Positions 15,426 to 60,061 of a DNA stretch of 64,000 bases are shown one piece after another (within the stretch, counting starts at the first letter, position 1; every line of letters starts with the position of its first letter). The DNA comes from Botryllus schlosseri (taxonomy: Eukaryota), in the NCBI GenBank assembly GCA_051294905.1, contig CM119372.1, positions 36,210,001-36,274,000 on the forward strand, in the 5' to 3' direction. The notes under the pieces were generated by a model, which worked only from the letters and a program-made list of their open reading frames with translations, made no database searches and had not been told where the DNA came from. Both the position numbers and the translations under genes were made by a program.

Positions 15426-18400
15426 TTCCAGGTGTTTTTCGACTACAAAGGCCATTTACACCGGGTCGATTTTTATTTATTTTGATTCCGTACCTGCCAA
15501 CCATACAGCCCATTTCTAGACTTATTTTCAATAAACCACTTGTACAGATCAGAAGGCGAAGGGCAATTGAGACAAACTTCTAACACTTGAGTATAAAGTC
15601 TGAAGGCCAATGCTGAAACTACAACAATATAAATTCTAAAGTTACCTTTATTGTTCTTAGTCCATATTTTTACATATTTCCATACTTTGTCTAATTTTTG
15701 GTTCTCAAGACAGGTCGCAATGGTCATATGGACGATACGAACAGTCCAACTTGTTACCAGGCCGTGGTGAGGATTAGGCAAAATCGATGACCTATTTATA
15801 GTCACCAGCTGCTCAAATTCCGCGGTTAGGCTAATTAAAATTTAACCCTGGTTGTGGAGATCAAAACAATATCTCGGGATGGCTATACTACACAGTGCAA
15901 ATGCGCAGTCATACACCACAAAATTATAGATTCCGCGCTAAAAACAGGGTAAGAACCCCTGAACTACGTGAATTTCGTTAATCTCCCTTCAAAGTTTGAT
16001 ATCGATGAAAGAACAGTCGTAAAATGAAAACGCTGGTTGAATGGTAGACTTGGGAGGCTTCATCCTTTCGTTATTCTTATGCTACCCATCCCAATTAATG
16101 CAGCAATCGTTCAACGCCGTGGCGTATTGTTATTCTCTGAATCGATGGGCTGTCATGCAGTTCCACCTGCTCATAACAATAGGCAGTATAGTCAGTGTTG
16201 CTTCTGTAGTAGAAGTAGTGATTTCCAACACGTGTCCAAACTAAATTGTTTAAAGACACTTTATTTAAAACATGCTGAAAATTGTTTTAAAAAATTGACT
16301 TTTTGACAAAAACAAATTTTTTTCGAATGTAGTATAATTATGACATAATTGTGCAAATACTTTCGCAAAATACGTAGTATGAGCCTATGGACGATTTGCA
16401 CCCGATACAGTCGTCCTACGCGATATGGAATTGTCGGAACCCTCATAATCGTCGTGTGTGGCATAACGATGTAGCCCTGGTTAAAGATATTTTGGTCCGT
16501 TTAATACAGGGTTCGGAAGCCGTTTTCGTCAAGGGAGCTATTTTACCCTACGTGTTCGATAGTCAATCCACTGTGACGTCACAAGATTCGAGGCATCATG
16601 GCTAAAAATAAAAATAAAACATGTTTCAAACAGGGGTCTTGCTTTAAACATGATTGTTTTAAATTTATTTTTGTTTTGAATACAACCCTAGTCCGGCTAT
16701 AAATGAGGTGAATGAAGAAAATGAAAGCTCTCAAAAGTAATGAAGTAGTTGGGAAAAGTATGTTGGTGAAGAGTACATATACTTTCAGGCAGAATTGATA
16801 GGAGGTGAAAACTCTCGACAATGCGGGATAACATTTCGCAACCATCGCAAAAAGATTAATGACGGTACAAATGGGTACATTCGTCTATAAACATGTGTTT
16901 ACCAAAGGGAGGATATCGCCCTCGCCTGGAATATTTTGAAGGACAGGATGCTAAAGTAAGGAATGGGCCCATTGTGGGGTGAAAATTTTAGAACGTTCAG
17001 TCCATTTTATTGACAGAAAAGCGTTTTAATACTTGACACATTTAGCACGGGAAAAGTGAAAAGGAAGTTAGGGAACCAGTGCACAAGACTATTACAACCA
17101 GAGGTTACTATGATGCCAATTTCACGCGCTTGTTATGACGATCTAACTGATAACTGCAAACTTATCCCAAAACTAGTATTTACTTGACAAAATATTAAAT
17201 GCATAATTTTTGCCTAAATAACACAGTAAAATTAGCATAATAACATGGCCACTTGGATAGTTAGTGCAAGTATAGACAAAACGTACTTGAGTACTTCGAT
17301 AAAGTAAAGGTACTTCAATCCTGACTACCTCTGTAGTGTCGTCAGGTATTTGCCTGTTAGCGAGGTAACATGACGCGAAGTAGCCTATAACAACAGCCAA
17401 ACCATTGTTAGCCATGCGATATGACGTATAATTCTTTCAAATCACTCCTTCGTGGTAAGTACCCGCTCCAGTCGAGGTTACAGTCACGTATGGATGAACA
17501 AAATAAATCAGGGTCGCGTTCTTCCATCTACTCCAGTGGTTCTCAACCTTTTCACCTCGCGGACCGGTAGAATTCCCAAAAATATTTGGCGAACCGGTGG
17601 ACTTCCAAAAATTGAAATCAACCCGCAATGCAAAGTAAACAGACGTTTTTTGCAAGTATATGGTGCTAGAGAGTGTCATTTTGAGAGTTTCGATCATAAT
17701 TAATTATGTTCATGATGGCATCCATGTGATTTTACGGTTGTGAGTGTGCTGAGTCGAAGTAGAATTGCATTGCCCAGATAAACGTGTTACTGCCGAGAGT
17801 CGTTTACAGGCTTTCGCGTCGTAGACCGTGGATTTAACCGACCGCGGCAACTCGAATAATATTCATATCTTCGACAATATCGAGGGAAGAAGTGTTTCCG
17901 GAGTAAAACCAACACCTAGTCGTGCTACCTTGTTGAATGCCCATTTCCCACTACTACCAGACGTGGACAGTAGTATAATTAGTCGCTGGTGAGAGGTAAA
18001 ATACCGGAAACCAGAATGTTGTATTTCGGAAGTCAGAAACGCAGCATTTTGAGCTAGCTAGCAGTCGAAAATCGGCCTATGGAGCTTCGGAAAAGCGTCA
18101 TTGTGGCGCTTCATGGACGCGCATTGTGTATTTCATAGAACTAATGACTCTGTGTATGGTGTGCGGATTTTGAAAACAGGTGTTCGAGTGTGTATTGACC
18201 TATATTCCGCGCGACAAATGACTCTGGCATCCTGGGTCCGCTCAATCACTATAGTGGTTCTATCGTGAATTGCTTCCCATGAAACAGCCGCTACAGTATA
18301 CTGAATCTATCGTAATATGGTATCGGAGTATTACAGTAGTCTGTCAAACCCTTTCATGAATTCAGCAGCGACACGAAAATATTCATCAAACATTGTGTAT

Positions 18401-18951
18401 TGTGAAACAGTTATATTGCAAGATATCGTGATGCTGTATTACAGAATGGCATGCCGTGATTATCAGCTAATATTTCACAAAACCTGATCGTTTACACTAA
18501 TAAAGGCTAAAGTTGAAACAGCAGTCGCAAGGGTAAAAAAATTTCGCAAAATGATTTGAAATTCAACTCATTCAGTGATCTGTTTTTCCCGTGTCAAAAT
18601 TGAGTATCGGAAAATGCTATCGCCATTGCATCCGAAATATCAACATCTTACACAACCTAACTAGACCAATTACTGACAGATCGCCATGTGTTATATTTAG
18701 CTATGCCTTGTCCATCTAACTGAGCCGCTATATGTATGATAAAATAAAAGTTGCGCGAGCATATAGCGTGTGGGCGATTTTGCATGTCGCAGGGTTGAAT
18801 AATGCTTGAATTCTTTCGTACTATCTAACGTGCCCTATGTAAAACATTCTGGGTCTACAGATTTATCAAAAACACTTCCATCATCGCAAAACCGATTGAT
18901 AAAATGATTATTACATACAATCTAATCAGGTGGACTTACCTTATATGTAGA

Positions 18952-19430
18952 ATGCAGAACGGTAAAGTAATCGGAGATATCGACTACACTGTATTTTGTC
19001 TCGATGTTCGTGAGTAGTATTGATGCATTTTTTCATTTCTCTTCTCCAAAATAATTGTCATTACGAAATCTAGAACACTAAACAGCGTTGCTTGGGTAAT
19101 ATGATTTCGAGTTGGTATTAAATTCCTAACATTTTACTACAGGGTATATAGGCTCAGGCAGCAACAGTTCTGATTTAGCAGACGCTGGTGACAAGGGTCT
19201 CGCCCACTCAACACAACACACGTATTTAAAAGTATCGCATACTCACACCGAAAGCACTGACATTACCGTTTACCCCAAATAGTGTTCGCCGCGTTATTAT
19301 TTCCACGATATCACTCATTAAATATTACATTTATGTTTTTGTGTGACACTAGGTAGAATTGGATCACACCAAACTCGACGCAGCATTCCTTTGCGTCATG
19401 ATATGGATACTGTCCCGCCGCGCTTCATTG
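18952..19430 (+). other. Tentative upstream exons of the LRR gene (18952-19009, 19143-19231, 19353-19430), mirrored in the right arm
   Basis: GT-AG bounded and phase-compatible: MQNGKVIGDIDYTVFCLDV / RYIGSGSNSSDLADAGDKGLAHSTQHTYLK / VELDHTKLDAAFL. I could not join them cleanly to the exon at 20597. Confidence 0.4.
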
Positions 19431-20596
19431 GTGTGGATCTGTATCCTACAAGTTATATTGTTTTCCCTGAAAGCGGCGTTTACTCACTTGGTTGATAGCT
19501 GCGTGATTTGGCACACCACTGATTGGTTAATACTTAATTCCGTGCATCCTCTCTACGCCGCGTGCTAAATGTTTACAAGCACTTTAATCATCACGAAAGC
19601 AAATTGAAATATGTTTGCTACGTCGAGCTTATTCGGGTAGACTTGAGTTATAGGTAGAATACAGAACATCAAATAAATCCCAATATTGACTACTCCAAAA
19701 TCGGGTTAATGAGAATGGTATTGCTGTTCATAAGTTATTGCTAAAATCTTTCTATTTCTATCCACTTAAATATTTGTCATCAGAAAATTCGATCCACTAA
19801 AAGAACTTGATTTGGTAACATTAATTCGATTATTTTAGCAACTTGTCGTCAAATTGTAATCGAAATTCGACATCCTTAGCATGTATCGTTTGGTAAGCGT
19901 GCCATACTGGAAATATATCCATACATTCCTTCCAAAATACAGCATCGATTTCGATTTCAGAAGCATATACTTGCCCGAAACTATCCCAATCCAATTTTCT
20001 CCCTACAATGGCTTTCTATAACGCGATGAATGACCTATATTCTGGATAATCAGTTTATTGACATTTTTTTTTTCAATTTTTCGAACCACCTGTCTTACAA
20101 TGACACAAGTATAATAGCGATAACATGGTAATAATAGAATCGCGGCAGGGATCCCCTCCACAATGTAAATGGTTATTACTCATTACTATCTTCATATGAA
20201 ACACCTAATTACAAGATTCCAAAGGTACAGAAAAGTTTAGGTCGAAATAAATAATTGACTTCATTCTATATTCTACTGCTACAAAACCGAGATTGGTTGG
20301 TTACACACCGTAAACCTAACGCTATACATTGTAGTCGAGCAATCTCGAGCTTGAATATGTCAAGACCTCTGATTATTTCTATCTGGCGTATCGGAATATT
20401 CAAATAATCCAACAATGGAATTATTGCTTAAAAAAAATCACTGCTTCAGTTTATCTGGCACGTATCATTATTTTATCCGACTTATCGAAATATTGAAAAT
20501 AGTCCAACACAAAAATCACATTGGAATTTTATTGGAATGAATATTCATTTTATTTTCTGATCATTAATTAATGACGATATACCACATATACTAAAG

Positions 20597-23446
20597 GTGA
20601 TAAGAGGATGTACCATCAATCAATACTTATGGATCATGATGAAGTTGAAATTCCTTATGGGATCTATCATAAAACTACGACCGAATTGGATGTAAAGAAT
20701 ATTGTGAATGGTCTCATGGAGAACTCTCGCATGTACGAGTTAGAATTCCGCCAAAGCCATCTTAATGAGAACCTTGTAAAGATGATATTGGACCAAATTC
20801 GCGAATTTGCATTTGAGGTAAACACATTCACACATTCCGCTCACAGTCACTGAGCAAGTGAACATTATAATCCACGTTCAATTTAAGCATGATATCCGTA
20901 TAATATACAGAGGTGGCTTAAATAAAAAACTTTCATCATGACCGCATTGTTTCATATTGATATTGTTATTACGGGGGGAATTGAAGGTATCGTACCGAAC
21001 AACGCTTAATTGCGCACCAGTGTAGCCATTTATTGCAATAGTCGTACTAGAGACTAGTGAGAGCTGATGAGGGGGTTGATTATTCATCACCTCAATTACT
21101 GCTTTACGGAGGAAAGTTTTGCATTTGTAAAGGTCCGAATAAAAAAACTCAGCGTCACAGCCCACGAGGGCATTGACAACCTCTTACCAGCCATCTGCGA
21201 GTTGATGAACGAGTGTGGTTCGACAGAACTCAATCTGGGGGAGAGTAGCGGATCTAGCGATTTTCTGCTCGTTTTGAGTCAACTTATCAGGCAACATCAG
21301 GTATTGGCGATGGAAAAATCCGGAGACTAAACTAGTATAAATCCTTTCCAAATGAGATCTTCCCATATAGGTGAAATTGGAAAAACTCGATCTCAGCTAC
21401 GGCGAAAACATCGACTTTACGCAACTCGAGACTATTATTTGAAGCGATCTAACCTGTTTGTCACTTGTGAACTCGCACTTGCAGTCAAAGGATTTTGTCG
21501 CCATGCAGGTCAAAAACAGTAAGGTATGGGTCTTGGGCGATTGTTGTTGAGTAGTGGTCAAGAGTCACATTCTTTATTGGTGGTTGCACAGAGTTCATTT
21601 GAGACGAATCATAGAAATTCTATTTTATCTCAGAACATTTCACCAATCTATTATGACGTGACTGGCTAATCAACATTTCTCTGTTATAAGTTTGTAGTGT
21701 TTATCTTCATCTCTGATTAATTGTGGTCGTAAATTGTCAGTTTCTCATATTCGTTTAGCTACAATATCTTGACATCAGTTATAATCATTTGGATGAAGAG
21801 TGTATGAATGCACTGCCCCCCTTATTTTCTAAAGACAAAGCGGTTACTCTTGTGATGAAAGGATGCGACCTTACACCCGATGAAATCGATGCTTTTGAAT
21901 GTTTTGGTGAAATCGAGGTAGCCACTCGTTTCCACAATTTTGCGTGTCTTTTTCAGAATAATTTGCTGTATTTTGTAGGTTGAAAAACTCGATCTAAGTT
22001 ACAATACGGATTTGGAACCGGTAGGATTGCAAGAAATCGGACGCTTCGTGAAAAGGCATAACACGAAGGAAGTTCGACTTTCAGCTTGCGAATTGGATGA
22101 ACAGTCATTAGTGTCGTTGAATAATGGTCTCGGAAATCATAAGGTGATCCATTTTAGCTATAGATCTGTCTTGTTTTCTTACAAGTGAAATAATAAAGCA
22201 TAATGTAATACTAATGTGGGTTCCAATCATATAGTCAGGCATGGCATTTCATTTTGCGAGCGAATTTATCATCAATAAGGCATTCCTGATCACGTCTGGC
22301 GATAAAAAAGTGTCATTGCTTCTAAGCGGAAGGTTTTCTATAGCTTATTCATATTAATGGTAGTTTCGATAGTTTCTTCAATATCCTATCGACGCTCATT
22401 ATTATTTTTTCTGTATTACACTAGTTTTGCGATGAGGCGCCGAAATTGATCAAATTACTCTGTCGCCGATAAATATTGTTATTACAGCAACTGTGTGGTT
22501 TGTAGCGCCGTAAAATATCTGAACATCACACTATGTTATAGCTGCATTCGCTGGATTTGAGTAGAAATCCTGAAATTTCATCCAGCTACAAAACAGTAAC
22601 TGAAATCCTGCACAAAACCCGCGTTGAAGAATTCAATCTGAGTAATTGCAAGATGCTTTCCATACAAATCAGGAATCTTAGCGAAGAGATGGGGGAGCTA
22701 TGCCCTACAGTGAGTTCTTTCTGCTCTCTCATGCATCTCAATAAAGCAATGTAGTTTAGATTTCGTTACTGAAATTGATCTAAACCGCCTAATATTCAAT
22801 TATTCAATGAACAGCTAAAGGTATTCGACCTCAGTGACAGCGATAGAACAAGAATCGACGAGGAATATGTGACTATCATTCAGAGCTTCGTGAAATATCA
22901 TCCTGAATGTCGCCAACTCAAACTGATCTTACCGCGCTTGAATGGCGTAGACAGGGAAACTTTAAGGAAGCAATTGTATTCGTCCGGTAAGACGACATTT
23001 CCGCATAAATATGCATCTATACATTGAAATTTGGTGCCCTTATTCCTTCACTTTATATTACTTATCGTGTTCGCTACGGCTTGATAAAATTTCATGTCTC
23101 TGTGTTAATTAAAGCATGAATTAAAGCACCACAATCACAACCTAATTGAAACCACGAGTCTGCAACCAATATTCTGATTTTGTTGAACAGTTATAGTTAA
23201 TAAATATTTTTATTGGTATCATTATGATAACAATATCTTCGAGACCTGTGTATGGCATACCCAGGAACCCGTATTATAAAATTGTACCGATTTGACAGAA
23301 TGCATAGAGTTGAGATGTTTCGATTCTAATTACATGTGGTATTATATGGGTTTCGTAAAACGAGACATACAACGCGATTTCCTAAAAGGTTCATCTCTTT
23401 TTGCGTTGCTTTAGACCGGACGCGTATAATATACACATTTGGATAA
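20597..23446 (+). pseudogene. Spliced ribonuclease-inhibitor/NLR-type LRR gene, left-arm copy with premature stop
   Basis: Exons 20597-20817, 21133-21300, 21371-21523, 21759-21917, 21979-22143, 22542-22709, 22815-22986 and 23415-23446, all GT-AG. Motifs LEKLDLSY, LQYLDISYNHL, VEKLDLSYN, LHSLDLSRN and LKVFDLSD. In-frame TGA at 21440-21442. Confidence 0.85.
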
Positions 23447-24684
23447 CGATTTTCTTTCATCACATGAGCAATATGTTCAGTGTTCACCCACGCGATAAAG
23501 CAAATCAGTAGTCCTCATAAGACTTGCAAATGTTTATCACACTCATAATAGTATACTAACGGCAACTATAGTCGGCGATATACTGCAGGTTTCGATGTGA
23601 TCGGCTGACCAATAATAAATCGCACATAGCACTCACATCAGTGCAATAATTGGCTTCAGGTGTTTGGTAGGTATTTCATTACGACGGAAGCATGTGAACC
23701 GAAGTTTTGGTCGTGATTGATAGTGACCGAGCGGTAAAATATGGTTGTGTTTAATCTGTGTGTGTGTGTGTGTACGACTGTGAAGCTACAATCTACGATA
23801 TCATCCCCGTACTTCACTTGTTAAGATCCGTGCTTAGCATTTTCGAGACGCATTACGACTGAATTTGCAATCTCGCTAGTTTTACGAACCGGTATATGCT
23901 TGTGTTGCGACAATGATCAGTGGATGATCATGATCAAGCTTCGAAAATGGATGAACACGTGTTTTCGAGCTTATTAACAACTCATGAGTGTGCACTTGTC
24001 AGTTAGTTTGCTCACACGTAAATAATAGAGATTTTCGCTGCGCAGGGAAGATGTTGTTTAAATCTTTATAAACCAATTCACATTGCATACAATCCTTGCC
24101 GCTTCGAACTCGGAAAGTCAATTTGGTAAACTCAATCACCAGATCCCGATAATCACCTGAAGCGATAAACCAAAACCAACAAATAATGTATAGCTTCAAC
24201 TAGGCCCACATGTCGATACACTGTCAATACGAAAAGTTACAATGTGTATGATGCTACAAATTCCGTGTGTTCCATTCTGGTTCAGCTCATTCATACAAAG
24301 TATTTGAAGAAATTGTTGCTTGTGCAGTTATGGTGTGAAAACTGGATGTATATAAAGCTTGATAGATGCTATCTCGTTCTGGAAGTATATTGATTCTATC
24401 ATCATGTATGCTTGAGGTCACCGACATTAATACGAAAGAATTGTTACTGTACAAATGTTTTACAGTCGATAGTTTACTGTCTGTAATAATTACACAACAA
24501 GGTTGCAGCTCAAACGATTACCGCATTGCCATGAGAGTTAATTATGATTCCACCGATGTTGTGCACCATAATATATTGAAAATTAATTTTCACGAGCTCC
24601 AAACTTGCATCGCGAGATCAATAAAATCGATTTTGTAAATTCAATCTGATGAATAGATGGCGGAAGACTTGTAGATCTAGAACG

Positions 24685-25263
24685 CAATCAGTCATATTTG
24701 TCCATCATGATACATAGTTATTCGAGCAAATTTAACAGTGATGCTATCGATACAGTGAACAGCACAAGGGGTGATATATTCACAGTCAAATATGGGAACC
24801 ATGAATAATAATGCACCCTGATTTTCGTTGAATATTCACAACACCGACAAATTGATAAATCTCTCTGTCGTAGACATCGACGATACAATTCTCATCCCAA
24901 TGCACAGTTCGAATGGTAGGCTCATCGGGCGTGAAATCCAAATCAAATAACACATAGGTGTGCTTTCTTGACTTCAAGATCCGTACAGAGGCATCGCGCC
25001 TGTGTTTTAGAACTACAGTGTGAGGCCAGAGAAAACGGTGTACGGAATAACGTATCGTCATGATCTCCCGTTGATATGATTAACTGAAACTTACGTCGCT
25101 CGATAGATATGCTGTGGTGACCTGTTTCGAAATGTAGCGGGGTGAACTAGACCAAAACTTTTGATGACACGTTTTATAATTATGCATTGTGTGAAAATAC
25201 GAGACGGCGCTCTCTAGCGGGGTGGTTAACACGATTTCAGTCTTCATCCTACAGAAACACTAT
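24685..25263. other. Unique 579-bp spacer (loop) of the palindrome, containing a 91-aa minus-strand ORF at 24786-25061
   Basis: Symmetry ends after ...TCTAGAACG at 24684 and resumes with CGTTCTAGA at 25264. Confidence 0.85.
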
Positions 25264-26501
25264 CGTTCTAGATCTACAAGTCTTCCGCCATCTATTCATC
25301 AGATTGAATTTACAAAATCGATTTTATTGATCTCGCGATGCAAGTTTGGAGCTCGTGAAAATTAATTTTCAATATATTATGGTGCACAACATCGGTGGAA
25401 TCATAATTAACTCTCATGGCAATGCGGTAATCGTTTGAGCTGCAACCTTGTTGTGTAATTATTACAGACAGTAAACTATCGACTGTAAAACATTTGTACA
25501 GTAACAATTCTTTCGTATTAATGTCGGTGACCTCAAGCATACATGATGATAGAATCAATATACTTCCAGAACGAGATAGCATCTATCAAGCTTTATATAC
25601 ATCCAGTTTTCACACCATAACTGCACAAGCAACAATTTCTTCAAATACTTTGTATGAATGAGCTGAACCAGAATGGAACACACGGAATTTGTAGCATCAT
25701 ACACATTGTAACTTTTCGTATTGACAGTGTATCGACATGTGGGCCTAGTTGAAGCTATACATTATTTGTTGGTTTTGGTTTATCGCTTCAGGTGATTATC
25801 GGGATCTGGTGATTGAGTTTACCAAATTGACTTTCCGAGTTCGAAGCGGCAAGGATTGTATGCAATGTGAATTGGTTTATAAAGATTTAAACAACATCTT
25901 CCCTGCGCAGCGAAAATCTCTATTATTTACGTGTGAGCAAACTAACTGACAAGTGCACACTCATGAGTTGTTAATAAGCTCGAAAACACGTGTTCATCCA
26001 TTTTCGAAGCTTGATCATGATCATCCACTGATCATTGTCGCAACACAAGCATATACCGGTTCGTAAAACTAGCGAGATTGCAAATTCAGTCGTAATGCGT
26101 CTCGAAAATGCTAAGCACGGATCTTAACAAGTGAAGCACGGGGATGATATCGTAGATTGTAGCTTCACAGTCGTACACACACACACACACAGATTAAACA
26201 CAACCATATTTTACCGCTCGGTCACTATCAATCACGACCAAAACTTCGGTTCACATGCTTCCGTCGTAATGAAATACCTACCAAACACCTGAAGCCAATT
26301 ATTGCACTGATGTGAGTGCTATGTGCGATTTATTATTGGTCAGCCGATCACATCGAAACCTGCAGTATATCGCCGACTATAGTTGCCGTTAGTATACTAT
26401 TATGAGTGTGATAAACATTTGCAAGTCTTATGAGGACTACTGATTTGCTTTATCGCGTGGGTGAACACTGAACATATTGCTCATGTGATGAAAGAAAATC
26501 G

Positions 26502-29351
26502 TTATCCAAATGTGTATATTATACGCGTCCGGTCTAAAGCAACGCAAAAAGAGATGAACCTTTTAGGAAATCGCGTTGTATGTCTCGTTTTACGAAACCC
26601 ATATAATACCACATGTAATTAGAATCGAAACATCTCAACTCTATGCATTCTGTCAAATCGGTACAATTTTATAATACGGGTTCCTGGGTATGCCATACAC
26701 AGGTCTCGAAGATATTGTTATCATAATGATACCAATAAAAATATTTATTAACTATAACTGTTCAACAAAATCAGAATATTGGTTGCAGACTCGTGGTTTC
26801 AATTAGGTTGTGATTGTGGTGCTTTAATTCATGCTTTAATTAACACAGAGACATGAAATTTTATCAAGCCGTAGCGAACACGATAAGTAATATAAAGTGA
26901 AGGAATAAGGGCACCAAATTTCAATGTATAGATGCATATTTATGCGGAAATGTCGTCTTACCGGACGAATACAATTGCTTCCTTAAAGTTTCCCTGTCTA
27001 CGCCATTCAAGCGCGGTAAGATCAGTTTGAGTTGGCGACATTCAGGATGATATTTCACGAAGCTCTGAATGATAGTCACATATTCCTCGTCGATTCTTGT
27101 TCTATCGCTGTCACTGAGGTCGAATACCTTTAGCTGTTCATTGAATAATTGAATATTAGGCGGTTTAGATCAATTTCAGTAACGAAATCTAAACTACATT
27201 GCTTTATTGAGATGCATGAGAGAGCAGAAAGAACTCACTGTAGGGCATAGCTCCCCCATCTCTTCGCTAAGATTCCTGATTTGTATGGAAAGCATCTTGC
27301 AATTACTCAGATTGAATTCTTCAACGCGGGTTTTGTGCAGGATTTCAGTTACTGTTTTGTAGCTGGATGAAATTTCAGGATTTCTACTCAAATCCAGCGA
27401 ATGCAGCTATAACATAGTGTGATGTTCAGATATTTTACGGCGCTACAAACCACACAGTTGCTGTAATAACAATATTTATCGGCGACAGAGTAATTTGATC
27501 AATTTCGGCGCCTCATCGCAAAACTAGTGTAATACAGAAAAAATAATAATGAGCGTCGATAGGATATTGAAGAAACTATCGAAACTACCATTAATATGAA
27601 TAAGCTATAGAAAACCTTCCGCTTAGAAGCAATGACACTTTTTTATCGCCAGACGTGATCAGGAATGCCTTATTGATGATAAATTCGCTCGCAAAATGAA
27701 ATGCCATGCCTGACTATATGATTGGAACCCACATTAGTATTACATTATGCTTTATTATTTCACTTGTAAGAAAACAAGACAGATCTATAGCTAAAATGGA
27801 TCACCTTATGATTTCCGAGACCATTATTCAACGACACTAATGACTGTTCATCCAATTCGCAAGCTGAAAGTCGAACTTCCTTCGTGTTATGCCTTTTCAC
27901 GAAGCGTCCGATTTCTTGCAATCCTACCGGTTCCAAATCCGTATTGTAACTTAGATCGAGTTTTTCAACCTACAAAATACAGCAAATTATTCTGAAAAAG
28001 ACACGCAAAATTGTGGAAACGAGTGGCTACCTCGATTTCACCAAAACATTCAAAAGCATCGATTTCATCGGGTGTAAGGTCGCATCCTTTCATCACAAGA
28101 GTAACCGCTTTGTCTTTAGAAAATAAGGGGGGCAGTGCATTCATACACTCTTCATCCAAATGATTATAACTGATGTCAAGATATTGTAGCTAAACGAATA
28201 TGAGAAACTGACAATTTACGACCACAATTAATCAGAGATGAAGATGAACACTACAAACTTATAACAGAGAAATGTTGATTAGCCAGTCACGTCATAATAG
28301 ATTGGTGAAATGTTCTGAGATAAAATAGAATTTCTGTGATTCGTCTCAAATGAACTCTGTGCAACCACCAATAAAGAATGTGACTCTTGACCACTACTCA
28401 ACAACAATCGCCCAAGACCCATACCTTACTGTTTTTGACCTGCATGGCGACAAAATCCTTTGACTGCAAGTGCGAGTTCACAAGTGACAAACAGGTTAGA
28501 TCGCTTGAAATAATAGTCTCGAGTTGCGTAAAGTCGATGTTTTCGCCGTAGCTGAGATCGAGTTTTTCCAATTTCACCTATATGGGAAGATCTCATTTGG
28601 AAAGGATTTATACTAGTTTAGTCTCCGGATTTTTCCATCGCCAATACCTGATGTTGCCTGATAAGTTGACTCAAAACGAGCAGAAAATCGCTAGATCCGC
28701 TACACTCCCCCAGATTGAGTTCTGTCGAACCACACTCGTTCATCAACTCGCAGATGGCTGGTAAGAGGTTGTCAATGCCCTCGTGGGCTGTGACGCTGAG
28801 TTTTTTTATTCGGACCTTTACAAATGCAAAACTTTCCTCCGTAAAGCAGTAATTGAGGTGATGAATAATCAACCCCCTCATCAGCTCTCACTAGTCTCTA
28901 GTACGACTATTGCAATAAATGGCTACACTGGTGCGCAATTAAGCGTTGTTCGGTACGATACCTTCAATTCCCCCCGTAATAACAATATCAATATGAAACA
29001 ATGCGGTCATGATGAAAGTTTTTTATTTAAGCCACCTCTGTATATTATACGGATATCATGCTTAAATTGAACGTGGATTATAATGTTCACTTGCTCAGTG
29101 ACTGTGAGCGGAATGTGTGAATGTGTTTACCTCAAATGCAAAATCGCGAATTTGGTCCAATATCATCTTTACAAGGTTCTCATTAAGATGGCTTTGGCGG
29201 AATTCTAACTCGTACATGCGAGAGTTCTCCATGAGACCATTCACAATATTCTTTACATCCAATTCGGTCGTAGTTTTATGATAGATCCCATAAGGAATTT
29301 CAACTTCATCATGATCCATAAGTATTGATTGATGGTACATCCTCTTATCAC
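26502..29351 (-). CDS. Spliced ribonuclease-inhibitor/NLR-type LRR gene, right-arm copy (about 408 aa from the ATG at 29340; true 5' end uncertain)
   Basis: Mirror of the left-arm exons, with TCA (Ser) at 28506-28508 in place of TGA. The LRR exons are 153-172 nt and mostly phase 0. Confidence 0.8.
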
Positions 29352-32162
29352 CTTTAGTATATGTGGTATATCGTCATTAATTAATGATCAGAAAATAAAA
29401 TGAATATTCATTCCAATAAAATTCCAATGTGATTTTTGTGTTGGACTATTTTCAATATTTCGATAAGTCGGATAAAATAATGATACGTGCCAGATAAACT
29501 GAAGCAGTGATTTTTTTTAAGCAATAATTCCATTGTTGGATTATTTGAATATTCCGATACGCCAGATAGAAATAATCAGAGGTCTTGACATATTCAAGCT
29601 CGAGATTGCTCGACTACAATGTATAGCGTTAGGTTTACGGTGTGTAACCAACCAATCTCGGTTTTGTAGCAGTAGAATATAGAATGAAGTCAATTATTTA
29701 TTTCGACCTAAACTTTTCTGTACCTTTGGAATCTTGTAATTAGGTGTTTCATATGAAGATAGTAATGAGTAATAACCATTTACATTGTGGAGGGGATCCC
29801 TGCCGCGATTCTATTATTACCATGTTATCGCTATTATACTTGTGTCATTGTAAGACAGGTGGTTCGAAAAATTGAAAAAAAAAATGTCAATAAACTGATT
29901 ATCCAGAATATAGGTCATTCATCGCGTTATAGAAAGCCATTGTAGGTAGAAAATTGGATTGGGATCGTTTCGGGCAAGTATATGCTTCTGAAATCGAAAT
30001 CGATGCTGTATTTTGGAAGGAATGTATGGATATATTTCCAGTATGGCACGCTTACCAAACGATACATGCTAAGGATGTCGAATTTCGATTACAATTTGAC
30101 GACAAGTTGCTAAAATAATCGAATTAATGTTACCAAATCAAGTTCTTTTAGTGGATCGAATTTTCTGATGACAAATATTTAAGTGGATAGAAATAGAAAG
30201 ATTTTAGCAATAACTTATGAACAGCAATACCATTCTCATTAACCCGATTTTGGAGTAGTCAATATTGGGATTTATTTGATGTTCTGTATTCTACCTATAA
30301 CTCAAGTCTACCCGAATAAGCTCGACGTAGCAAACATATTTCAATTTGCTTTCGTGATGATTAAAGTGCTTGTAAACATTTAGCACGCGGCGTAGAGAGG
30401 ATGCACGGAATTAAGTATTAACCAATCAGTGGTGTGCCAAATCACGCAGCTATCAACCAAGTGAGTAAACGCCGCTTTCAGGGAAAACAATATAACTTGT
30501 AGGATACAGATCCACACCAATGAAGCGCGGCGGGACAGTATCCATATCATGACGCAAAGGAATGCTGCGTCGAGTTTGGTGTGATCCAATTCTACCTAGT
30601 GTCACACAAAAACATAAATGTAATATTTAATGAGTGATATCGTGGAAATAATAACGCGGCGAACACTATTTGGGGTAAACGTTAATGTCAGTGCTTTCGG
30701 TGTGAGTATGCGATACTTTTAAATACGTGTGTTGTGTTGAGTGGGCGAGACCCTTGTCACCAGCGTCTGCTAAATCAGAACTGTTGCTGCCTGAGCCTAT
30801 ATACCCTGTAGTAAAATGTTAGGAATTTAATACCAACTCGAAATCATATTACCCAAGCAACGCTGTTTAGTGTTCTAGATTTCGTAATGACAATTATTTT
30901 GGAGAAGAGAAATGAAAAAATGCATCAATACTACTCACGAACATCGAGACAAAATACAGTGTAGTCGATATCTCCGATTACCGTTCTGCATTCTACATAT
31001 AAGGTAAGTCCACCTGATTAGATTGTATGTAATAATCATTTTATCAATCGGTTTTGCGATGATGGAAGTGTTTTTGATAAATCTGTAGACCCAGAATGTT
31101 TTACATAGGGCACGTTAGATAGTACGAAAGAATTCAAGCATTATTCAACCCTGCGACATGCAAAATCGCCCACACGCTATATGCTCGCGCAACTTTTATT
31201 TTATCATACATATAGCGGCTCAGTTAGATGGACAAGGCATAGCTAAATATAACACATGGCGATCTGTCAGTAATTGGTCTAGTTAGGTTGTGTAAGATGT
31301 TGATATTTCGGATGCAATGGCGATAGCATTTTCCGATACTCAATTTTGACACGGGAAAAACAGATCACTGAATGAGTTGAATTTCAAATCATTTTGCGAA
31401 ATTTTTTTACCCTTGCGACTGCTGTTTCAACTTTAGCCTTTATTAGTGTAAACGATCAGGTTTTGTGAAATATTAGCTGATAATCACGGCATGCCATTCT
31501 GTAATACAGCATCACGATATCTTGCAATATAACTGTTTCACAATACACAATGTTTGATGAATATTTTCGTGTCGCTGCTGAATTCATGAAAGGGTTTGAC
31601 AGACTACTGTAATACTCCGATACCATATTACGATAGATTCAGTATACTGTAGCGGCTGTTTCATGGGAAGCAATTCACGATAGAACCACTATAGTGATTG
31701 AGCGGACCCAGGATGCCAGAGTCAGTTGTCGCGCGGAATATAGGTCAATACACACTCGAACACCTGTTTTCAAAATCCGCACACCATACACAGAGTCATT
31801 AGTTCTATGAAATACACAATGCGCGTCCATGAAGCGCCACAATGACGCTTCTCCGAAGCTCCATAGGCCGATTTTCGACTGCTAGCTAGCTCAAAATGCT
31901 GCGTTTCTGACTTCCGAAATACAACATTCTGGTTTCCGGTATTTTACCTCTCACCAGCGACTAATTATACTACTGTGGACTGTTGTAGCTACTACGGCTA
32001 TAATGCGCCGCACCAAAACACCTGGCAACAGCTATACTTGGCCCTCCACAAAATCAGAACAGAAAAGGCGTAGGCTACCCCAACGTTGGTCTTGGGCCTC
32101 TCACAGAGAGAGGGATATCTTTACCGTTACTTGTGATCACATCCATTCTACTCAGTGCAAGC

Positions 32163-32893
32163 CAGTGGTTCTCAAATTGGGGGCGTGCCCCCGTGAAAGC
32201 TTGAGAAAGGGTGCGCGAAGCCGCCTGAAAGAAAAATATGTTACTCAAACTGAGAACAACCTTTCAACAAAGGAAATATTTTTAATTACATAACAATTCA
32301 AATTTCATGATTGCGTCGTACAGTTTCTACACGGATGTCAAATTTCGTCTGATACCGGACCTTTCACTGATTAGAAGATGTATCACTCCAAGAAGCGCAT
32401 TTTATTATGGCAATCAGTGGAATTATTCTCTTGCCAAACATGGCGAACATTGCGCAGGGAAAAAATGTTTGCCAGTGTAAAAGTGCCAAGTTTAAATGGC
32501 GTACGGCCCGGGCCATTGGTTTTCAATTTAGCTTACGCCCAGGTAGACCTACGTTTGAGTTAAGCTCAAGTGGGATAATAAAATGGATCAGGCACCAAAA
32601 TCGCTAAATGCTGCGTGCTATCACTGCAAATGATTATTTTTGATACGATGTTGAAGTGAAAATTTTTCGCGCTGGGCTTGATTTAACTCCAGCAAATGAA
32701 TATTGCTCCCTATATAATCCGAAATTCTTATTTGACAAGTCTCTCATCAGTTCTAACCTTCCATGACATCAAACTATGCATTATCATTGCAAACATTTGG
32801 TCGTTTTTTTCAATATTTTGCTATGACGATAAGGAGGGGCGCAACATTTTTCACGATAATAACGGGGCGTGTCAAAAGGTTTTGGAACCTCTG
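32163..32893. mobile_element. Degenerate hAT MITE
   Basis: Ends CAGTGGTTCTCAAA...TTTGGAACCTCTG with TSD GTGCAAGC/TTGTAAGC (6/8). Confidence 0.7.
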
Positions 32894-34604
32894 TTGTAAG
32901 CAAAGAGTTCGTGAATAGCTTAATCACGCGAGGCGCGGGAATTTCCTCTAATTCATGACCAAATTGGTCAATGATAATGGTAATTGCGGATATATTGCTA
33001 AAAAATCATCCCATCAGAATTGTTATATTTCCGATAGAGCTGAGTGAGGTGTCGTCTTGGAAAATTCAGGACACGTAATCAACAATTAAATATATTAGGG
33101 CGGGCCTGTTGGAATAATTACTTCGTCACATGTCATAAATTCGTGTCCTATACTGTCTGTTATATAGTGAATAGATATTGAAATCGCCCAAGTGTACTAA
33201 ACTAAAAGCGCACACGATTCCAAACTGGTATTTCTTTACTGGAAAATAGCATGCCTCGGTGGGATGGCATTTGTTTTGTCGGGTATGGATTGTCAGGACA
33301 GCGAAATTCGACACCAGCCATTTAGGTGCCTATGGACAACTTGACATAATATATCGAAGTTTTTGGTGAACGAAGGTCAATCCTTTTCGGCCAAAATTTT
33401 GTCGCCGCCAAATTGTTGGCACATTGTTCGGAGTCCCATGTTAGCCTAAGCTTCATCATGTGTTGGTGCGTCGTGGTGCTGCAATGGTTGATGCCGAAAT
33501 GTCTACTCCTATATAACCCATGCGTATTTCTTAGGGGAATGGCTCCCTCAAGGCATTTAGTGGCACTAAATCGGGCAAAGCGTCGACAAAATTGAAATGT
33601 TGGATGAAGTTTCAACCAGATTACTCTATACTTCATGTTCATTTCACGAAATAACTTTGGGCCCCCTTCAAGCTCGACCCTCTTCAATTGGAGGGTTTGG
33701 GTGCGGTGGTTACAGTTCAGCACAAAATGAATGAATCGAAAACGAATTATCGTGCAAGCTGCGCGATTAAGCGAGTCAGCTCAGACTTTTCAATAGCATG
33801 TCGTCAAATGACACGGCTTGAACTTCAAGTCAAATCGAACATGTTTCCAGGCCTAATGTTACCTCACGAAGTTCTGAATCAGTTTAAAATTTGATTTCAT
33901 ATTTATTTTTATCAATGGACAAGTCTTTAACATATTGCATCTTGAAATTGAGGTATAAAATTGTAATATACCTGGCGGACCGGCAGGAAAGTCGTCGCGG
34001 ACCGGCGGTTGAGAACCACTGATCTACACAGCTAATTAGATACTCAACAAATTTCCACTTGATTTTTAAAACGAGAACGTTAGTTTGGGTTCTATATGTA
34101 TCTGTAATGCTGACTCCTAAACTAGATTTTTTTCTAGCTTATTTTCAATATTTTTTGAGAAAAGCTTTCCTATAGTAGAAAGAGGCTTGTTACCGTGGGC
34201 ATTTCAGATTTGTTTAGGGGGGTTCAATAATTTAGAGCAGTGGTGGGCAATTATTTTCCTCTGCGGGCCAAATGAGAAGTAGAAAATGCGTGGGCCGGCC
34301 GAGTGGGAAATTTAAGCTGTATTCTCCATCGTATTTTAATTATATTTCTAAATTACATTGTTAGTAAATGCTGCTCAGTGAATATGTTGATATTAGGTAA
34401 TGAGAAAGTGACGGTTAGCCTAATTGAAAAATATTTATTTGCCGTCATGATTGGAGACAACGTTGAACATGATGCATTTTGACTCCCTTTAAACCCCTGT
34501 CCACGTTCTTCTATTAAGACTCCAAAACAGTGTTTTTTTTTAGGCACACCTTCCTTCCTTTATGATAATGAAACATTTCGCGCTCCCCATGATCAGATCA
34601 TGAT

Positions 34605-45579: not shown

Positions 45580-46795
45580 TAGGGTGGTCCTTAAAAAACG
45601 AATTTTGGAAAGTTGTTGGTCTGACCCTGCCAAAATGTTCCTTTTGGTTAAAAAAAAAACACTGTGTAAAATTTTATTGATGTTTATTGATGTTTAGAGG
45701 AGGCTCAATGGATCCAAAATTTTACCTATATCAGCTATGGCGCATATATAGTAAATTCGTAGTTGCTATTGGGTCAACGCTGGAAAGCCTGGATTACCTC
45801 GTCTGGTTAATAGCTGATCATAGTGATCATTGGTGGGGGTATCATGATGTCCAATATCATTTTATATTGCCAAGTAAGCTCTGTTTGAGGGTGCTGGGGC
45901 ACATTTTGAGGAGGTCAGCAACAACCCCAAATGCCAACTGCAGTTGCTCCTCGTTTTTTTGTGAGATGGACATAATCATCCTCAATCATTGCGTTGAAAG
46001 TTCTGTGTGGTCGTTGGGGACAAACAATGTGAGTGTGAGTGTGAGTGCGAATATTGTCGACATATCTAAAGCGACAGTGAGGAGGATTGTATGGAAACTG
46101 GGGTTTCCGTCTGCGGGGTTGATTGGTCTGGCGATGTTTGATGACGATTTGCACTGCACAAGGGCACCGACCATAACACAGTTGTTGCCATAAATAAGAC
46201 TATTAACTTCAAACACGTTCCAAAGAAGATTTTAATCGACGAAGAATACAACACTTATTTTGAGAAAACCTGCGACTTTCCAATGGTGCCTTCAATATCT
46301 GTCAGTTAAGCGGAAGGGGCAGCCTGGTTTCATTGCTGAAAAAGCTTCACACTCACATTGTTTGTCTCCGACGACCACACAGAACGTTCCACGCAGTGAT
46401 TGAGCATGTTTAAGACCATCTCACAAAAAAAACGAGGAGCAACTGCAGTTTGCATTCGGGGTTGTTGCTGACCTCCACAAAATGTGCTCCAACACCCTCA
46501 AACAGAGCTTACTTGGCAATATGAAATGATACTGGCCATCATGGTACCCTCACCAATGATCAGCTATTAACCAGACGAGGTAATCCAGGCTTTCCAGCGT
46601 TGACCCAATAGCAACTATGAATTTACTATATATGCTCCATGGCTGATATAGGTAAAATTTCGGATCCATTGAGCCACCTCTAAACATTAAGGAATATCAA
46701 TAAAATTTTACACAGTGTGTTTTTTAACCAAATGGAACATTTTGGCAGGGTCAGACCAACAACTTTCCAAAATTCGTTTTTTAAGGACCACCCTA
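45580..46795. mobile_element. Foldback-type hAT MITE with roughly 450-bp inverted arms
   Basis: Starts TAGGGTGGTCCTTAAAAAACGAATTTTGG. About 45580-46050 mirrors about 46340-46795. Exact TSD GTGTATAT. Confidence 0.92.
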
Positions 46796-53830: not shown

Positions 53831-55646
53831 CAAAGCGAGAGAGAAACAGGTGATGCCCCTATACCAAGAAGTGTTCTCAACTTTTTGAAAATAAAAGAGA
53901 ATTTGCTTCTTGAATTTGCGACTACGTCATACATAGACGGGCTCGGGATAGAATCATCGCCTGACTGATTTCACAGCAATACCAGGATTCCAAAATGACC
54001 TGAGTGAGGTTCTTACGATAATACAATCGACTGTAACGACCGCTGATATACCGATGGCTACAGTTGGCTATAGCGCGATTGATGCCAGGCGTCTCGCATT
54101 CAGCGCACATACACGCGCCGCGTGTTATTGTAGTATTGACGACGTTCATTCAATGATTCAATTCACAGTGCCGGACGCCGATGTATGTAATCGCTTCGTA
54201 CGAGTTACTAAGTACTAGATAGTGCTTTATCGAAACACACCTTGCTCTTGTACAACAAGTAGAACTGAATATATATTGGTTGGATTGACAGGTAGTCATA
54301 TCTGCAATATAAAATGCAGTGTTTCACTGCTATTTTACTGGGCATTTGAAGAAAGATTAGGTCATACGGGGCCTAAGATAACTTATCGTAGGCCCCGCGT
54401 CATATTATGCAAGCCTTTCATCGACACTGGTGATGTAGACAATCGCTTTGAGACAAGGGCTGTCTATTGAACCAATAGGCATCCTGATAACCCAGCTATC
54501 ACGACATGCGCATCGCAGCAATCAGTTTCGAAGTGCACATCTCGACCGCCGACTCTACATACCTATTTATTCGCTAATTTGACAATGGACATTGAACATT
54601 CAACCATATTTAGGTTTTGTTCTCTACCATGGGCCAGATCTGAAACATTTTCACCAGAAGTGAAGCCATTTACGGACATAAATTTTCTGTCATATCGATT
54701 GCGCTTTGGAGATCTTGTAGCTCGCTGAACTGAATACCATCATGTTGGTAATGCTGTATTAGTATGAAAAGCAGCAATCGATATGCGTAATCTGCAACAG
54801 CGAATCTTCGCTAATCACAACAGCAAATATATTACCGCGTGTTATTGTTTGGGTGATAACATAGTATCGCGGACGTTGAAATGATTCATTTCACAACGCC
54901 GGTATATGTAATCGCTTGTCCATCCTTTGTACGAGTTCGTGCCATGTGTTGAAACTAACATTGCTGTTGTACAACACGCGCATCGCAGCAATCAGTTTCG
55001 AAGTGCGTCTCGTGACCGCAGACTCTACATACCTCGATCCGCTAGATTGAAAATCGACATTCAACCATATTTTTGTAAAGTAATTTATTGCGTGGCGCAA
55101 TATATGCCATTGGCTTTGCTGGTCGTCAAATTTTCATGAATGACCTGCGCGTTGTGGACGGAAATCTCGAGCAGACACGAAAATACCTTTCAATACCAGA
55201 ATCGTGACCGGAGCTTTGATGTGCCGGTGCATTTCGTTTTATTCGCTAGGCTACTACGTAAAAGACGTGAAACATTTTCACCAGAAGTGCAGCCATTTAC
55301 GGACATAAATTTCCTGTCATATCAATAGCGGAGATCTTGTAGCTCGCTGAACAACATCATGGCAGTATTGGTGTATTAGTATGAAAAGCAAAAATATTCA
55401 ATATGCGTAATCTTCAACAGCAACAGAAAATACATTGCTAAAACCCGCGCATGTTATTTCGTAAAATATTTTTACTTCCAGTTCAAAGATTCTTCTGTGC
55501 GACTAATTATTGATTATAAGTATTCCAATAGATGGGCAATGGGCATAACCAACGCATGTTAGGAGAAAAGATCTGCAAATGAATTTGATGTCTCGGCGAT
55601 GCGCTGATTTAGGTCACGGGCGCTGGTTTATCTCACGCGCGCACAT

Positions 55647-58600: not shown

Positions 58601-59272
58601 TTCTCTAAGGTCAAACACATACTGCACAACTTGAGCAAGAATAGTCGGATTAGATCCAGTTATTGATTCTAGAAGATAATGATTCCTAAATTGGAAATAC
58701 TCCGACCAGTATATTGCTATCTTAGGAAATAACATAAAATTCAGAGCAACCGATTGGCTGTTTTCCACAGTCACTGGAAAAGACATTTACAAGCTTTGTT
58801 TTCTATCTCAGTAGACAAGAAAGAGTATCAGGTCCATTAGATCGAATAATTCAATACTGCTACAATACTATAATCACTAATCCTGCGCTAGACTCGCTAA
58901 CAGCATGAGTTAAAAAGCTACCTGGTAAGTCCTGCACCTCAATCGTAAACACAGTTCTTCAACAACAAAGCAGCAAAACACCTGAGTAATCAATGATCCC
59001 CATTTCACTGCCGTGCCTAGCGCGTCATCAACGCTAGAACATCCGCTTCACGTCAATGAGAACACATGCGGTTGCTGTCGAGTCACTCACAACGGGGGAA
59101 TCCCCAAATTCCGAAGAATTTTTTTGGTGCATGAAAAAACGGCAAAATGCACACGGATGCAGGGGATGAAGTACAAAAAAAAGTAGCCAGAATTTGTTTT
59201 TAAGGTATAAGGCATGGGAAACGGACTGAAAACCTAGACTTTTTGAAAGTCGGTCAATTCTGAACAACCCTA
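55647..59272 (-). mobile_element. hATm-like DNA transposon with roughly 130-bp imperfect terminal inverted repeats
   Basis: TAGGGTTGTTCAGAATTGACCGACTTTCAAAAAGTC at both ends, inverted. TSD degraded (GCGCACAT/ACGCTCAG). Confidence 0.85.
56190..58420 (-). pseudogene. Frameshifted DDE transposase (hATm-like)
   Basis: LHWNGKL, LLGIRTLESATGKAQA, ALVFDTTSSN, RFRKPGA, LIGPESWFLF and VVKDAAKRLVKL across ORFs 57237-57938, 56813-57013 and 56276-56641. Confidence 0.82.
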
Positions 59273-60061
59273 ACGCTCAGTTATCATTAATGATTATGCC
59301 GTTTCGATCGGGTTAAGGTATCAAATTGTAATATACCTGGCGGACCAGTGCCGGTCCGTGGACCGGCGGTTGAGAACCACTGCCCTAGCCGTTTTCTAAG
59401 CGTCTCGGTCTTCGCAGTTTACGGGCCGTTGCACGTCGAGGCAACATGCTTATTCATATCAGCTGCATCTCCATCGATGGAATGCTGTTGCCAACGCCGA
59501 AGTTGTTTCAGTGAGTGGGAAATAATGTTGTTGAGCACAGGCGAGTAGCTAATTTTGAAACAACAACAATAATTTGAAACTGAAATCAATTACAGCATTT
59601 CAAAATGCTCCATTCTGCGTTCACAGATCAGATCGCCCACCTCGATTGATGACCCCTGGTATTGTGCAATGCAAAATGAACCTAGCTTGGTGCAAAGACG
59701 CCATATCGGAGACTTAGGGTGCAACTCCGTTCATCGGCATTTTCCGTGACCTAATGTCGCTTTGACACCCATTTAATGGAGGAAAACGCGTCAAATGGAG
59801 ACGGCTCCGCTTAATTCGGACACCGGATGACCGTTGCAACTACTTTATTCGGCCAAAATGCTCAGGAAATAGTATATAGTAATTATTGAATCGTTTGGTA
59901 TCGAAATACCATGGTATCAGTATCAGTTTATTAACAATTTCATCATTTCATACCACCACAAGCCTGCGATATAATGAAAAGATAAAAAGGTATCGATACG
60001 GCTTGGAGTAGACTTTCAAACCCACCTGGGCCTAGTCGATGTAAACAGTAACCATGTACAC

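Follow-up and report, generated by a model that had tools for sequence, protein, structure and literature searches.

A palindromic Maverick-ended satellite of Botryllus schlosseri carries a predicted leucine-rich repeat gene descended from a host NLR

A 64,000-nt stretch of the Botryllus schlosseri genome (assembly GCA_051294905.1, contig CM119372.1, positions 36,210,001 to 36,274,000; here termed the window, with positions counted from its first letter) was found to contain a palindromic, non-autonomous element with Maverick/Polinton ends, and each of its two arms carries one copy of an intron-containing gene for a leucine-rich repeat (LRR) protein. Sequence comparison identifies this cargo with the C-terminal one of the two LRR blocks in a host NLR gene of the NACHT type, and its reading frame has been under purifying selection after the capture. 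The account as a whole, i.e. capture of the block, spread on satellites, selection on the frame, and damping of NLR or cell-death signalling by the product, is favoured here with some reserve.

Structure and class of the cargo gene

The cargo gene has seven coding exons, six GT-AG introns and 411 codons, in the left copy from an ATG at 20608 to a stop ending at 23027 (Table 1). The left copy is broken by an in-frame stop in exon 3 and the right copy is open, and all three coding differences between the arms change the protein. The predicted product is an LRR-only protein of 411 amino acids (aa) with about 13 repeats. The original prediction, which was made from the letters of the window alone, had recognised the two tail-to-tail copies, the GT-AG introns and six exons starting in phase 0 (168, 153, 159, 165, 168 and 172 nt), most of them opening with an LxxLDLSxN-like motif, and all of these features were recovered; the stop in the left copy was absent from it. 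Its count of at least eight exons per arm had to be reduced to seven coding exons, the 172-nt exon being the last. An eighth exon is ruled out by the stop at 23025-23027, by the stop of the related host locus and the end of the related protein P0006 (both described below), which fall in exon 7, and by the DNA beyond 23091, which is not common to the main satellite subfamily; no LRR-like candidate emerged when the DNA beyond exon 7 was scanned for splice sites.

The repeats are of the ribonuclease inhibitor (RI) class and lie in two-repeat, phase-0 exons. This class, as originally predicted, was recovered with a profile from 20 exon units (the window and three paralogous loci), which among 14 PDB sequences matched ribonuclease inhibitor (E 9e-13), NLRP5 (2e-7), NLRP1 and NLRP4F, and in the ESM Atlas, where exon 5 was grouped with LRR_1/LRR_6 clusters at 0.97. 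Single exons produced Pfam LRR matches in three of seven cases, all below the cut-off. A word-based protein search with exon 5 returned none of 23 candidates as a match, and phmmer with exon 1 found only two unspliced open reading frame (ORF) calls, P0001 and P0002. The cargo lacks a NACHT or P-loop domain, as had been noted from the start: the longest stop-free frame in the left arm and spacer (frames of at least 45 aa considered) is 101 aa, against 366-624 aa for the frames occupied by host NACHT exons.

Origin from a host NLR gene

NACHT exons in the genome number at least 94 (of 224 candidates, 94 were scored). One of these, at C16:8.634 Mb (match E 2e-18), lies 6.2 kb upstream of a 69% exon-6 match on the same strand, and the chain from it to the cargo-like exons is splice-compatible. 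A search for the parental locus had been proposed with the original prediction, and at this locus, of which the 10 kb read hold one copy, all seven exons recur downstream of NACHT at 50-74% aa identity, with the six introns kept. Its DNA is about 71% identical to that of the cargo across the introns and short intronic and 3′ flanks, in agreement with the predicted capture at the DNA level. Homology to host-type loci sets in 30-70 nt ahead of the exon-1 acceptor and stops near 23069, shortly after the stop codon. In the C16 locus the exon-1 homologue is an internal phase-1 exon with no ATG at the start position of the cargo, a linker exon would join it in frame, and the exon-7 homologue contains a stop codon. 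By these comparisons the C16 locus is a close relative of the donor (dS ~0.6) and not necessarily the donor itself, and we infer that its second block is spliced to NACHT in B. schlosseri.

A protein search with the C16 NACHT exon retrieved P0006 (1,198 aa, 47% identical), whose source is probably a spliced transcript, since the assembly contig is at most 4.5 kb long. In P0006, NACHT is followed within one ORF by two LRR blocks with a linker between them. The second block corresponds to cargo exons 2-7 in order (35-47% identity), the units directly abutting and the C-terminus lying in the exon-7 unit. For exon 1, blastp found no match to P0006 at the cut-off, but its homologue at C2:3.68 Mb is matched by P0006 residues 826-881. 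Among named proteins the nearest relative is from Styela clava. The AlphaFold model of P0006, based on four sequences, was poor (mean pLDDT, the per-residue confidence score, 44); in it the second LRR block directly follows the disordered linker and is the best-predicted part, at moderate confidence only. Foldseek with this block returned NLRPs, NLRC4, NOD2 and RI, which is weak support.

Thus, where the original prediction had left the gene as RI or NLR type, the NLR origin stands on the C16 locus and P0006, both of which possess NACHT, and the RI origin does not. Orthology to the stand-alone ribonuclease inhibitor (RNH1) was rejected because RI is the top PDB match by repeat class only, and the exon-for-exon relative is an NLR tail with 35-74% identity. 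In a tree rooted on P0006, the five element copies and P0001 grouped together in a single clade (98/95), which lay within C2:3.68 Mb, C16 and C1:29.7 Mb; this tree left out winL, C12a/b, C1a and C6, and P0001 was represented by exon 1 only. Another tree that included winL, C12a and C6b gave the same result. As the element clade is nested among single-copy loci, the direction was from host to element.

The parent type of NLR has two LRR blocks with a low-complexity linker of ~90 aa between them (L021, P0006). Distant paralogues of the second block are located at C2:3.62 Mb, C2:3.68 Mb and C12:8.93 Mb; the 9.5 kb read at C2:3.68 Mb contained no NACHT, and this locus is therefore not established as an NLR. 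The locus at C1:29.72 Mb, which is frameshifted, and that at C2:1.52 Mb, a fragment, are regarded as single copies in decay.

The element and its insertion site

Self-comparison of the window gave a single large inverted repeat with a spacer, the arms of which differ by 11 substitutions and one 5-nt indel over 6,716 bp. The ends of the element are AGTAGT and ACTACT. Once the element and one duplication are taken out, the flanks can be aligned without a break (78% over 399 nt) to another copy of the older, hAT-like target repeat, near 52.5 kb. The arm-spacer joint is present in a contig of sequencing run X18. On the ends, the duplication, the arm differences, the empty-site alignment and this joint, the element is a real, recent insertion. 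Chimeric reads can yield near-perfect inverted duplications, and a palindrome could on that ground be an assembly or library fold-back artefact; given the twelve arm differences, the 6-bp duplication, the empty-site match, the X18 joint and dozens of loci built alike, such an origin is almost certainly wrong.

The target repeat has CAGTGGTTCTCAAC ends and an 8-bp duplication with one mismatch, and it holds a second insertion near 32165-32897.

Table 1. Features of the element and of its insertion site, in window positions.
Feature	Position	Strand	Remarks
Palindromic non-autonomous Maverick/Polinton-ended element	17969..31974	.	14,006 bp, 96% within the two arms
Left arm	17969..24684	+	6,716 bp
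Right arm	25264..31974	-	99.76% identical to left arm
Unique spacer	24685..25263	.	579 nt
Left 6-bp target-site duplication, GTGGAC	17963..17968	+	Only k=6 among 2-11 matches on both sides
Right 6-bp target-site duplication	31975..31980	+	Flank comparison and empty-site alignment
Terminus	17969..18287	+	79% identical to terminal inverted repeat of gene-bearing Maverick, C3:33.21 Mb; mirrored at right end
hAT-like non-coding repeat, older, insertion target	17534..34021	+	Self-comparison, empty-site alignment
Captured NLR-LRR cassette common with other satellite subfamily	20442..23091	+	Host-locus homology ~20527-23069
Exon 1, left copy	20597..20817	+	Old phase-1 acceptor 20595-20596; element-specific ATG at 20608
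Exon 2	21133..21300	+	168 nt
Exon 3	21371..21523	+	153 nt; in-frame stop 21440-21442 in left arm
Exon 4	21759..21917	+	159 nt
Exon 5	21979..22143	+	165 nt
Exon 6	22542..22709	+	168 nt
Exon 7, terminal, capping repeat	22815..23027	+	Stop 23025-23027
Right gene copy	26921..29351	-	Open for 411 codons
Right-copy exons 1-7	29131-29351, 28648-28815, 28425-28577, 28031-28189, 27805-27969, 27239-27406, 26921-27133	-	
91-aa ORF in spacer	24786..25061	-	In both satellite subfamilies, 53-72% identity; not found in C3 Maverick copy

Relation to gene-bearing Mavericks

The (AGT)2//(ACT)2 ends and the 6-bp duplication agree with an autonomous Maverick/Polinton. Terminal inverted repeats (TIRs) in such elements measure tens to ~1,500 bp around a unique interior, against arms of 6.7 kb here, and the core genes (polymerase, integrase, ATPase, capsids, protease) are absent. 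The ends are instead common to gene-bearing elements of the same genome, as in a non-autonomous Maverick satellite. The first 319 bp resemble the TIR of a 15.4-kb element at C3:33.21 Mb, and the first 60 nt are near-identical to C13:17.13 Mb, which holds a putative capsid ORF at 97%. The C3 element encodes an rve integrase with a chromodomain (Pfam E 2.5e-15) and an A32-type ATPase (E 1.6e-5). Its ORFs of 1057, 447 and 197 aa had no Pfam match, and from size, position and motifs we take these to be a putative polymerase, capsid and protease. None of the ORFs of the C3 element had a tblastn match in the window element. An exact 6-bp duplication was present in 10 of 12 elements examined, five of the six LRR-bearing ones among them; in one element the duplication had a single mismatch, and one element had no duplication.

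The putative capsid ORF gave 12 matches at 97-100% and 82 at 74-80% identity (94 of 94 scored; 299 candidates), and these matches point to at least two groups of gene-bearing Mavericks in the genome. Two sister satellites, C10:1933383-1948454 and C12:17222951-17239670, carry the LRR allele of the window and keep opposite gene-bearing-Maverick ends in both arms; one of them has the putative protease and capsid C-terminus in its arms, the other a left-end ORF. The pair is consistent with a copy-back that may start from either end.

Spread of the cassette and satellite subfamilies

Gene DNA gave 40 scored matches (287 candidates) with 88-98% identity outside the window. Exon 6 as protein had 149 matches among 150 scored (156 candidates), merging to 146 sites and 77 loci on 17 contigs, and exon 1 at least 150 matches (150 of 150 scored). 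The sites formed 54 head-to-head and two tail-to-tail pairs, with 34 unpaired, which include host-type loci; the orientation in the window is thus the exception (2/56 pairs). In the main close subfamily the AGTAGT terminus is of another type, the genes stand head to head, and an intronless Bcl-2 ORF lies on the outer side of each; the terminal motif of this subfamily, compared by eye, brackets LRR matches in 10 of 10 complete pairs. A Bcl-2 match was located within 7 kb on the opposite strand at 47 of the 55 sites of at least 84% identity, a count that covers the top 75 of 150 listed matches and does not extend to distant subfamilies. The dispersed copies, the paired sites and the bracketing motifs agree with the earlier suggestion that the element spreads the gene. 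A check for common termini around paralogues had been proposed at that stage; AGTAGT ends were found at the satellites, and the terminus of the main subfamily differs from that of the window element.

The window and main subfamilies have only 20442-23091 and the spacer ORF in common, and the cassette is thereby present in two unrelated terminus families, in opposite orientations. From these two backbones, and from sibling satellites with and without the LRR gene, it follows that the cassette has moved between satellite backbones and is optional.

The Bcl-2 ORF at L006:336-878 (C1:21214336-21214878) is intronless (Pfam E 1.6e-21), and the genome holds at least 150 matches to it (150 of 150 scored; 425 candidates), mostly in inverted pairs. 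The 91-aa spacer ORF likewise has at least 150 genome matches (150 of 150 scored; 1,203 candidates), nearly all open; its protein had no match in Pfam or the Atlas and three full-length relatives in public assemblies, and on its distribution it may be the satellites' own hallmark gene. At C12, the LRR satellite adjoins Bcl-2 and spacer-ORF sequence of another satellite (L001:44-1653), into which it was probably inserted. Exon-1 fragments (query residues 1-33 or 1-41) occur on several contigs as head-to-head pairs ~600-700 bp apart, which suggests loss of most of the LRR gene in some satellite subfamilies.

Selection on the reading frame

The ratio of nonsynonymous to synonymous substitution rates (dN/dS), from codon counts over ~397 codons, was 0.30-0.42 in five of five between-subfamily pairs (bootstrap bounds 0.19-0.73, upper bounds 0.51-0.73). 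It was equally low against the single-copy loci (0.34-0.36), and ~0.4 with introns as the neutral yardstick. Between the window and the C1 copy, no exon indels and 15 intron indels were counted. All 12 copies retain the new ATG, as does P0001 (66% identity), 145 of 149 exon-6 matches are free of stops, and the two subfamilies compared differ little at the xLxLx strand positions. The reading frame has accordingly been under purifying selection after capture. The suggestion that the element diversifies the gene did not hold in the copies examined, dN/dS being well below 1 and the xLxLx positions little changed.

Seven of 12 inserted copies are broken by a stop, a frameshift or a lost splice site. 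Low dN/dS together with broken inserted copies is the pattern expected if the gene helps the moving element and decays once inserted. Selection therefore probably acts on the mobile lineage, as dN/dS is low between subfamilies yet most inserted copies examined are broken. We regard it as quite likely that the frame is under purifying selection while inserted copies decay, with the benefit probably falling to the moving element. Spread to dozens of sites with the protein kept under selection further suggests that the element uses the LRR protein.

The same capture and selection data could also be read in favour of the host. The LRR-only protein would then be a sensor or restriction factor against the Maverick helper, possibly paired with full-length NLRs, much as anti-phage systems are found on phage satellites. 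In its favour, the block represents an entire LRR domain from an immune receptor, and gene-bearing Mavericks are numerous in the genome, as counted above from the putative capsid ORF. The block, however, is devoid of NACHT or any effector domain, the neighbouring cargo is Bcl-2-like and such proteins usually keep cells alive, and the breakage of inserted copies is something that host-level selection should oppose, which makes a host-protective role rather improbable.

Several observations weigh against the favoured account. In four of five close pairs the dN/dS interval includes 1. Spliced cargo RNA was found in no read or contig of runs X17, X18, X22 and X23 over 24700-31974, in RNA that was shallow or doubtful: X23 gave 50 reads, mostly below 95% identity and with no listed joint at the predicted introns (3% of the run read), the contigs of X17 and X18 run through the introns, the RNA status of both runs being a guess, and X22 had no reads on this interval and so was no test of splicing. 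A run search listed no RNA run carrying the sequence. The unpaired acceptor 11 nt ahead of the ATG would be suited to spliced-leader trans-splicing, but no spliced-leader-like loose end at exon 1 was present among the matches listed. Satellites with window-type ends and the spacer ORF, at C4:3.12 Mb and C7:20.99 Mb, have no LRR match, and at C12 and C6 the LRR gene is broken on both arms, so that the gene is dispensable in cis. The window subfamily has no Bcl-2 ORF (0 of 3 elements), and the subfamilies at 63-80% identity, which make up most sites, are known from search matches only. For the ends of the Bcl-2-bearing subfamily no helper was found; by eye, its terminus type had no evident overlap with the listed putative capsid-ORF sites. 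A search with Pfam DNA_pol_B_2 matched none of nine genome candidates nor the 1057-aa ORF, and is uninformative in that the controls were also silent.

From the missing transcripts in the four runs, the LRR-less satellites with the same ends, the alleles broken on both arms and the close-pair intervals, the gene could be read as a passive passenger with no role for the element, its low dN/dS reflecting recopying from one or a few host-useful source copies or purging of harmful misfolded products. This is unlikely, however, in view of dN/dS between subfamilies that is as low as against the single-copy loci, the ATG retained in all 12 copies and in P0001 at 66% identity, the near absence of stops in exon 6, and the presence of the cassette in two unrelated terminus families in opposite orientations.

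Proposed mechanism and function

An ancestral element took up ~2.6 kb of genomic DNA of a NACHT-LRR-linker-LRR gene, with one boundary within the intron that precedes the second LRR block and the other shortly after the stop, and the ATG was gained 11 nt behind the old acceptor. The satellites, which retain only the ends, would be copied and integrated in trans by gene-bearing Mavericks; the duplications and the dispersed near-identical copies point to such mobilisation. The palindrome may arise by copying one half back on itself, as is suggested by the sister elements that keep opposite Maverick ends in both arms, and two gene copies and their orientation would then be by-products. Capture of the NLR block together with these mobilisation and palindrome steps is considered very probable.

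Alternatively, the palindrome itself might act at the RNA level: through long double-stranded RNA, convergent or read-through transcription would silence either the element or host NLR genes. Nearly identical arms around a 579-nt loop, with the genes pointing inward, would suit such a transcript, but pairs are tail-to-tail in so few cases, the nearest host loci are only ~71-73% identical in DNA, and selection has acted on the protein; this alternative is very improbable.

For the protein-level use that we prefer, the LRR protein would be made during mobilisation and, acting as a ligand sink or a dominant-negative LRR, would damp host NLR or cell-death signalling, alongside the Bcl-2 ORF of the main subfamily. 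Viral Bcl-2 homologues provide the analogy for damping of cell death, and Bcl-2 proteins reportedly bind NLRP1. Purifying selection and the Bcl-2 co-cargo fit the decoy or modulator function that had originally been suggested. Damping of NLR or cell-death responses by the cargo, resting on this analogy, is put forward tentatively. In a wider form, which is speculative, the satellites might carry a selected, host-derived kit for immune modulation, consisting of an NLR-derived LRR-only decoy and a Bcl-2 homologue, with the LRR cassette swapped between families and the kit acting during Maverick replication; if true, such an element would be virus-like and would hold a genuine NLR domain acquired by capture.

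Comparison with known systems

Nematode Mavericks carry a wasp protease and a krma kinase as cargo (Widen et al., 10.1101/2022.07.12.499685) and likewise have intron-containing host genes; here, in contrast, a single NLR domain with a new start codon is carried, in two copies, by a gene-poor palindromic satellite. Vertebrate Mavericks have the same 5′-(AGT)2//(ACT)2-3′ ends and 6-bp duplication, and the window element is inside their size range of 12.7-24.6 kb, whereas they possess core genes and TIRs of 46-1,447 bp (Barreat and Katzourakis 2021, PMC8097293), as opposed to 6.7-kb arms and no core genes here. In butterfly polintons, genes are doubled inside inverted repeats and cargo-bearing elements remain mobile, but the TIRs are ~2 kb long and double hexon and adenain, and the cargo consists of other transposons and not of a host immune domain (Pannagram, 10.1101/2025.02.07.637071). 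Intron-bearing host cargo (nematodes) and gene-bearing TIRs (butterflies) are hence already published.

The modular exons of NLR and RI genes also hold two repeats each, with the border at the same place of the beta-strand; they are strictly 171 nt long (Hoss et al. 2019, PMC6642158), in contrast to 153-172 nt, and no NACHT or effector, in the cargo. ORF63 of KSHV, the herpesvirus of Kaposi's sarcoma, was once proposed as a viral NLR homologue, which Boyle and Monie 2012 conclude to be unlikely (PMC3437474). Both cases share the notion of NLR signalling being damped by a viral protein; unlike that of ORF63, the NLR descent of the cargo is backed by exon structure and sequence, its function being only predicted. 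The accessible text of PMC6431247 and PMC11071296 contains nothing on such cargo, and no NLR or LRR cargo on Mavericks or such palindromic satellites was found in the literature, as searched without supplements and most subscription papers.

New here are the domain-sized capture from an NLR, the parent traceable in the same genome, the new start codon and purifying selection after capture, as well as the dispersal by palindromic satellites to ~70 loci, of which many have a Bcl-2 ORF alongside. These bear on what Maverick accessory genes do and on whether Mavericks meet and counter host innate immunity. Parent loci can be named, sibling satellites that have or lack the cargo are available for comparison, and the single-domain protein is open to assay. 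NLR and LRR gene counts in the B. schlosseri genome are inflated by the mobile copies.

Other repeats in the window

Two other inverted-repeat elements were identified in the window, at 45580-46795 (460-bp arms, 91%) and 55646-59273 (131-bp arms, 92%), accompanied by many small repeats.

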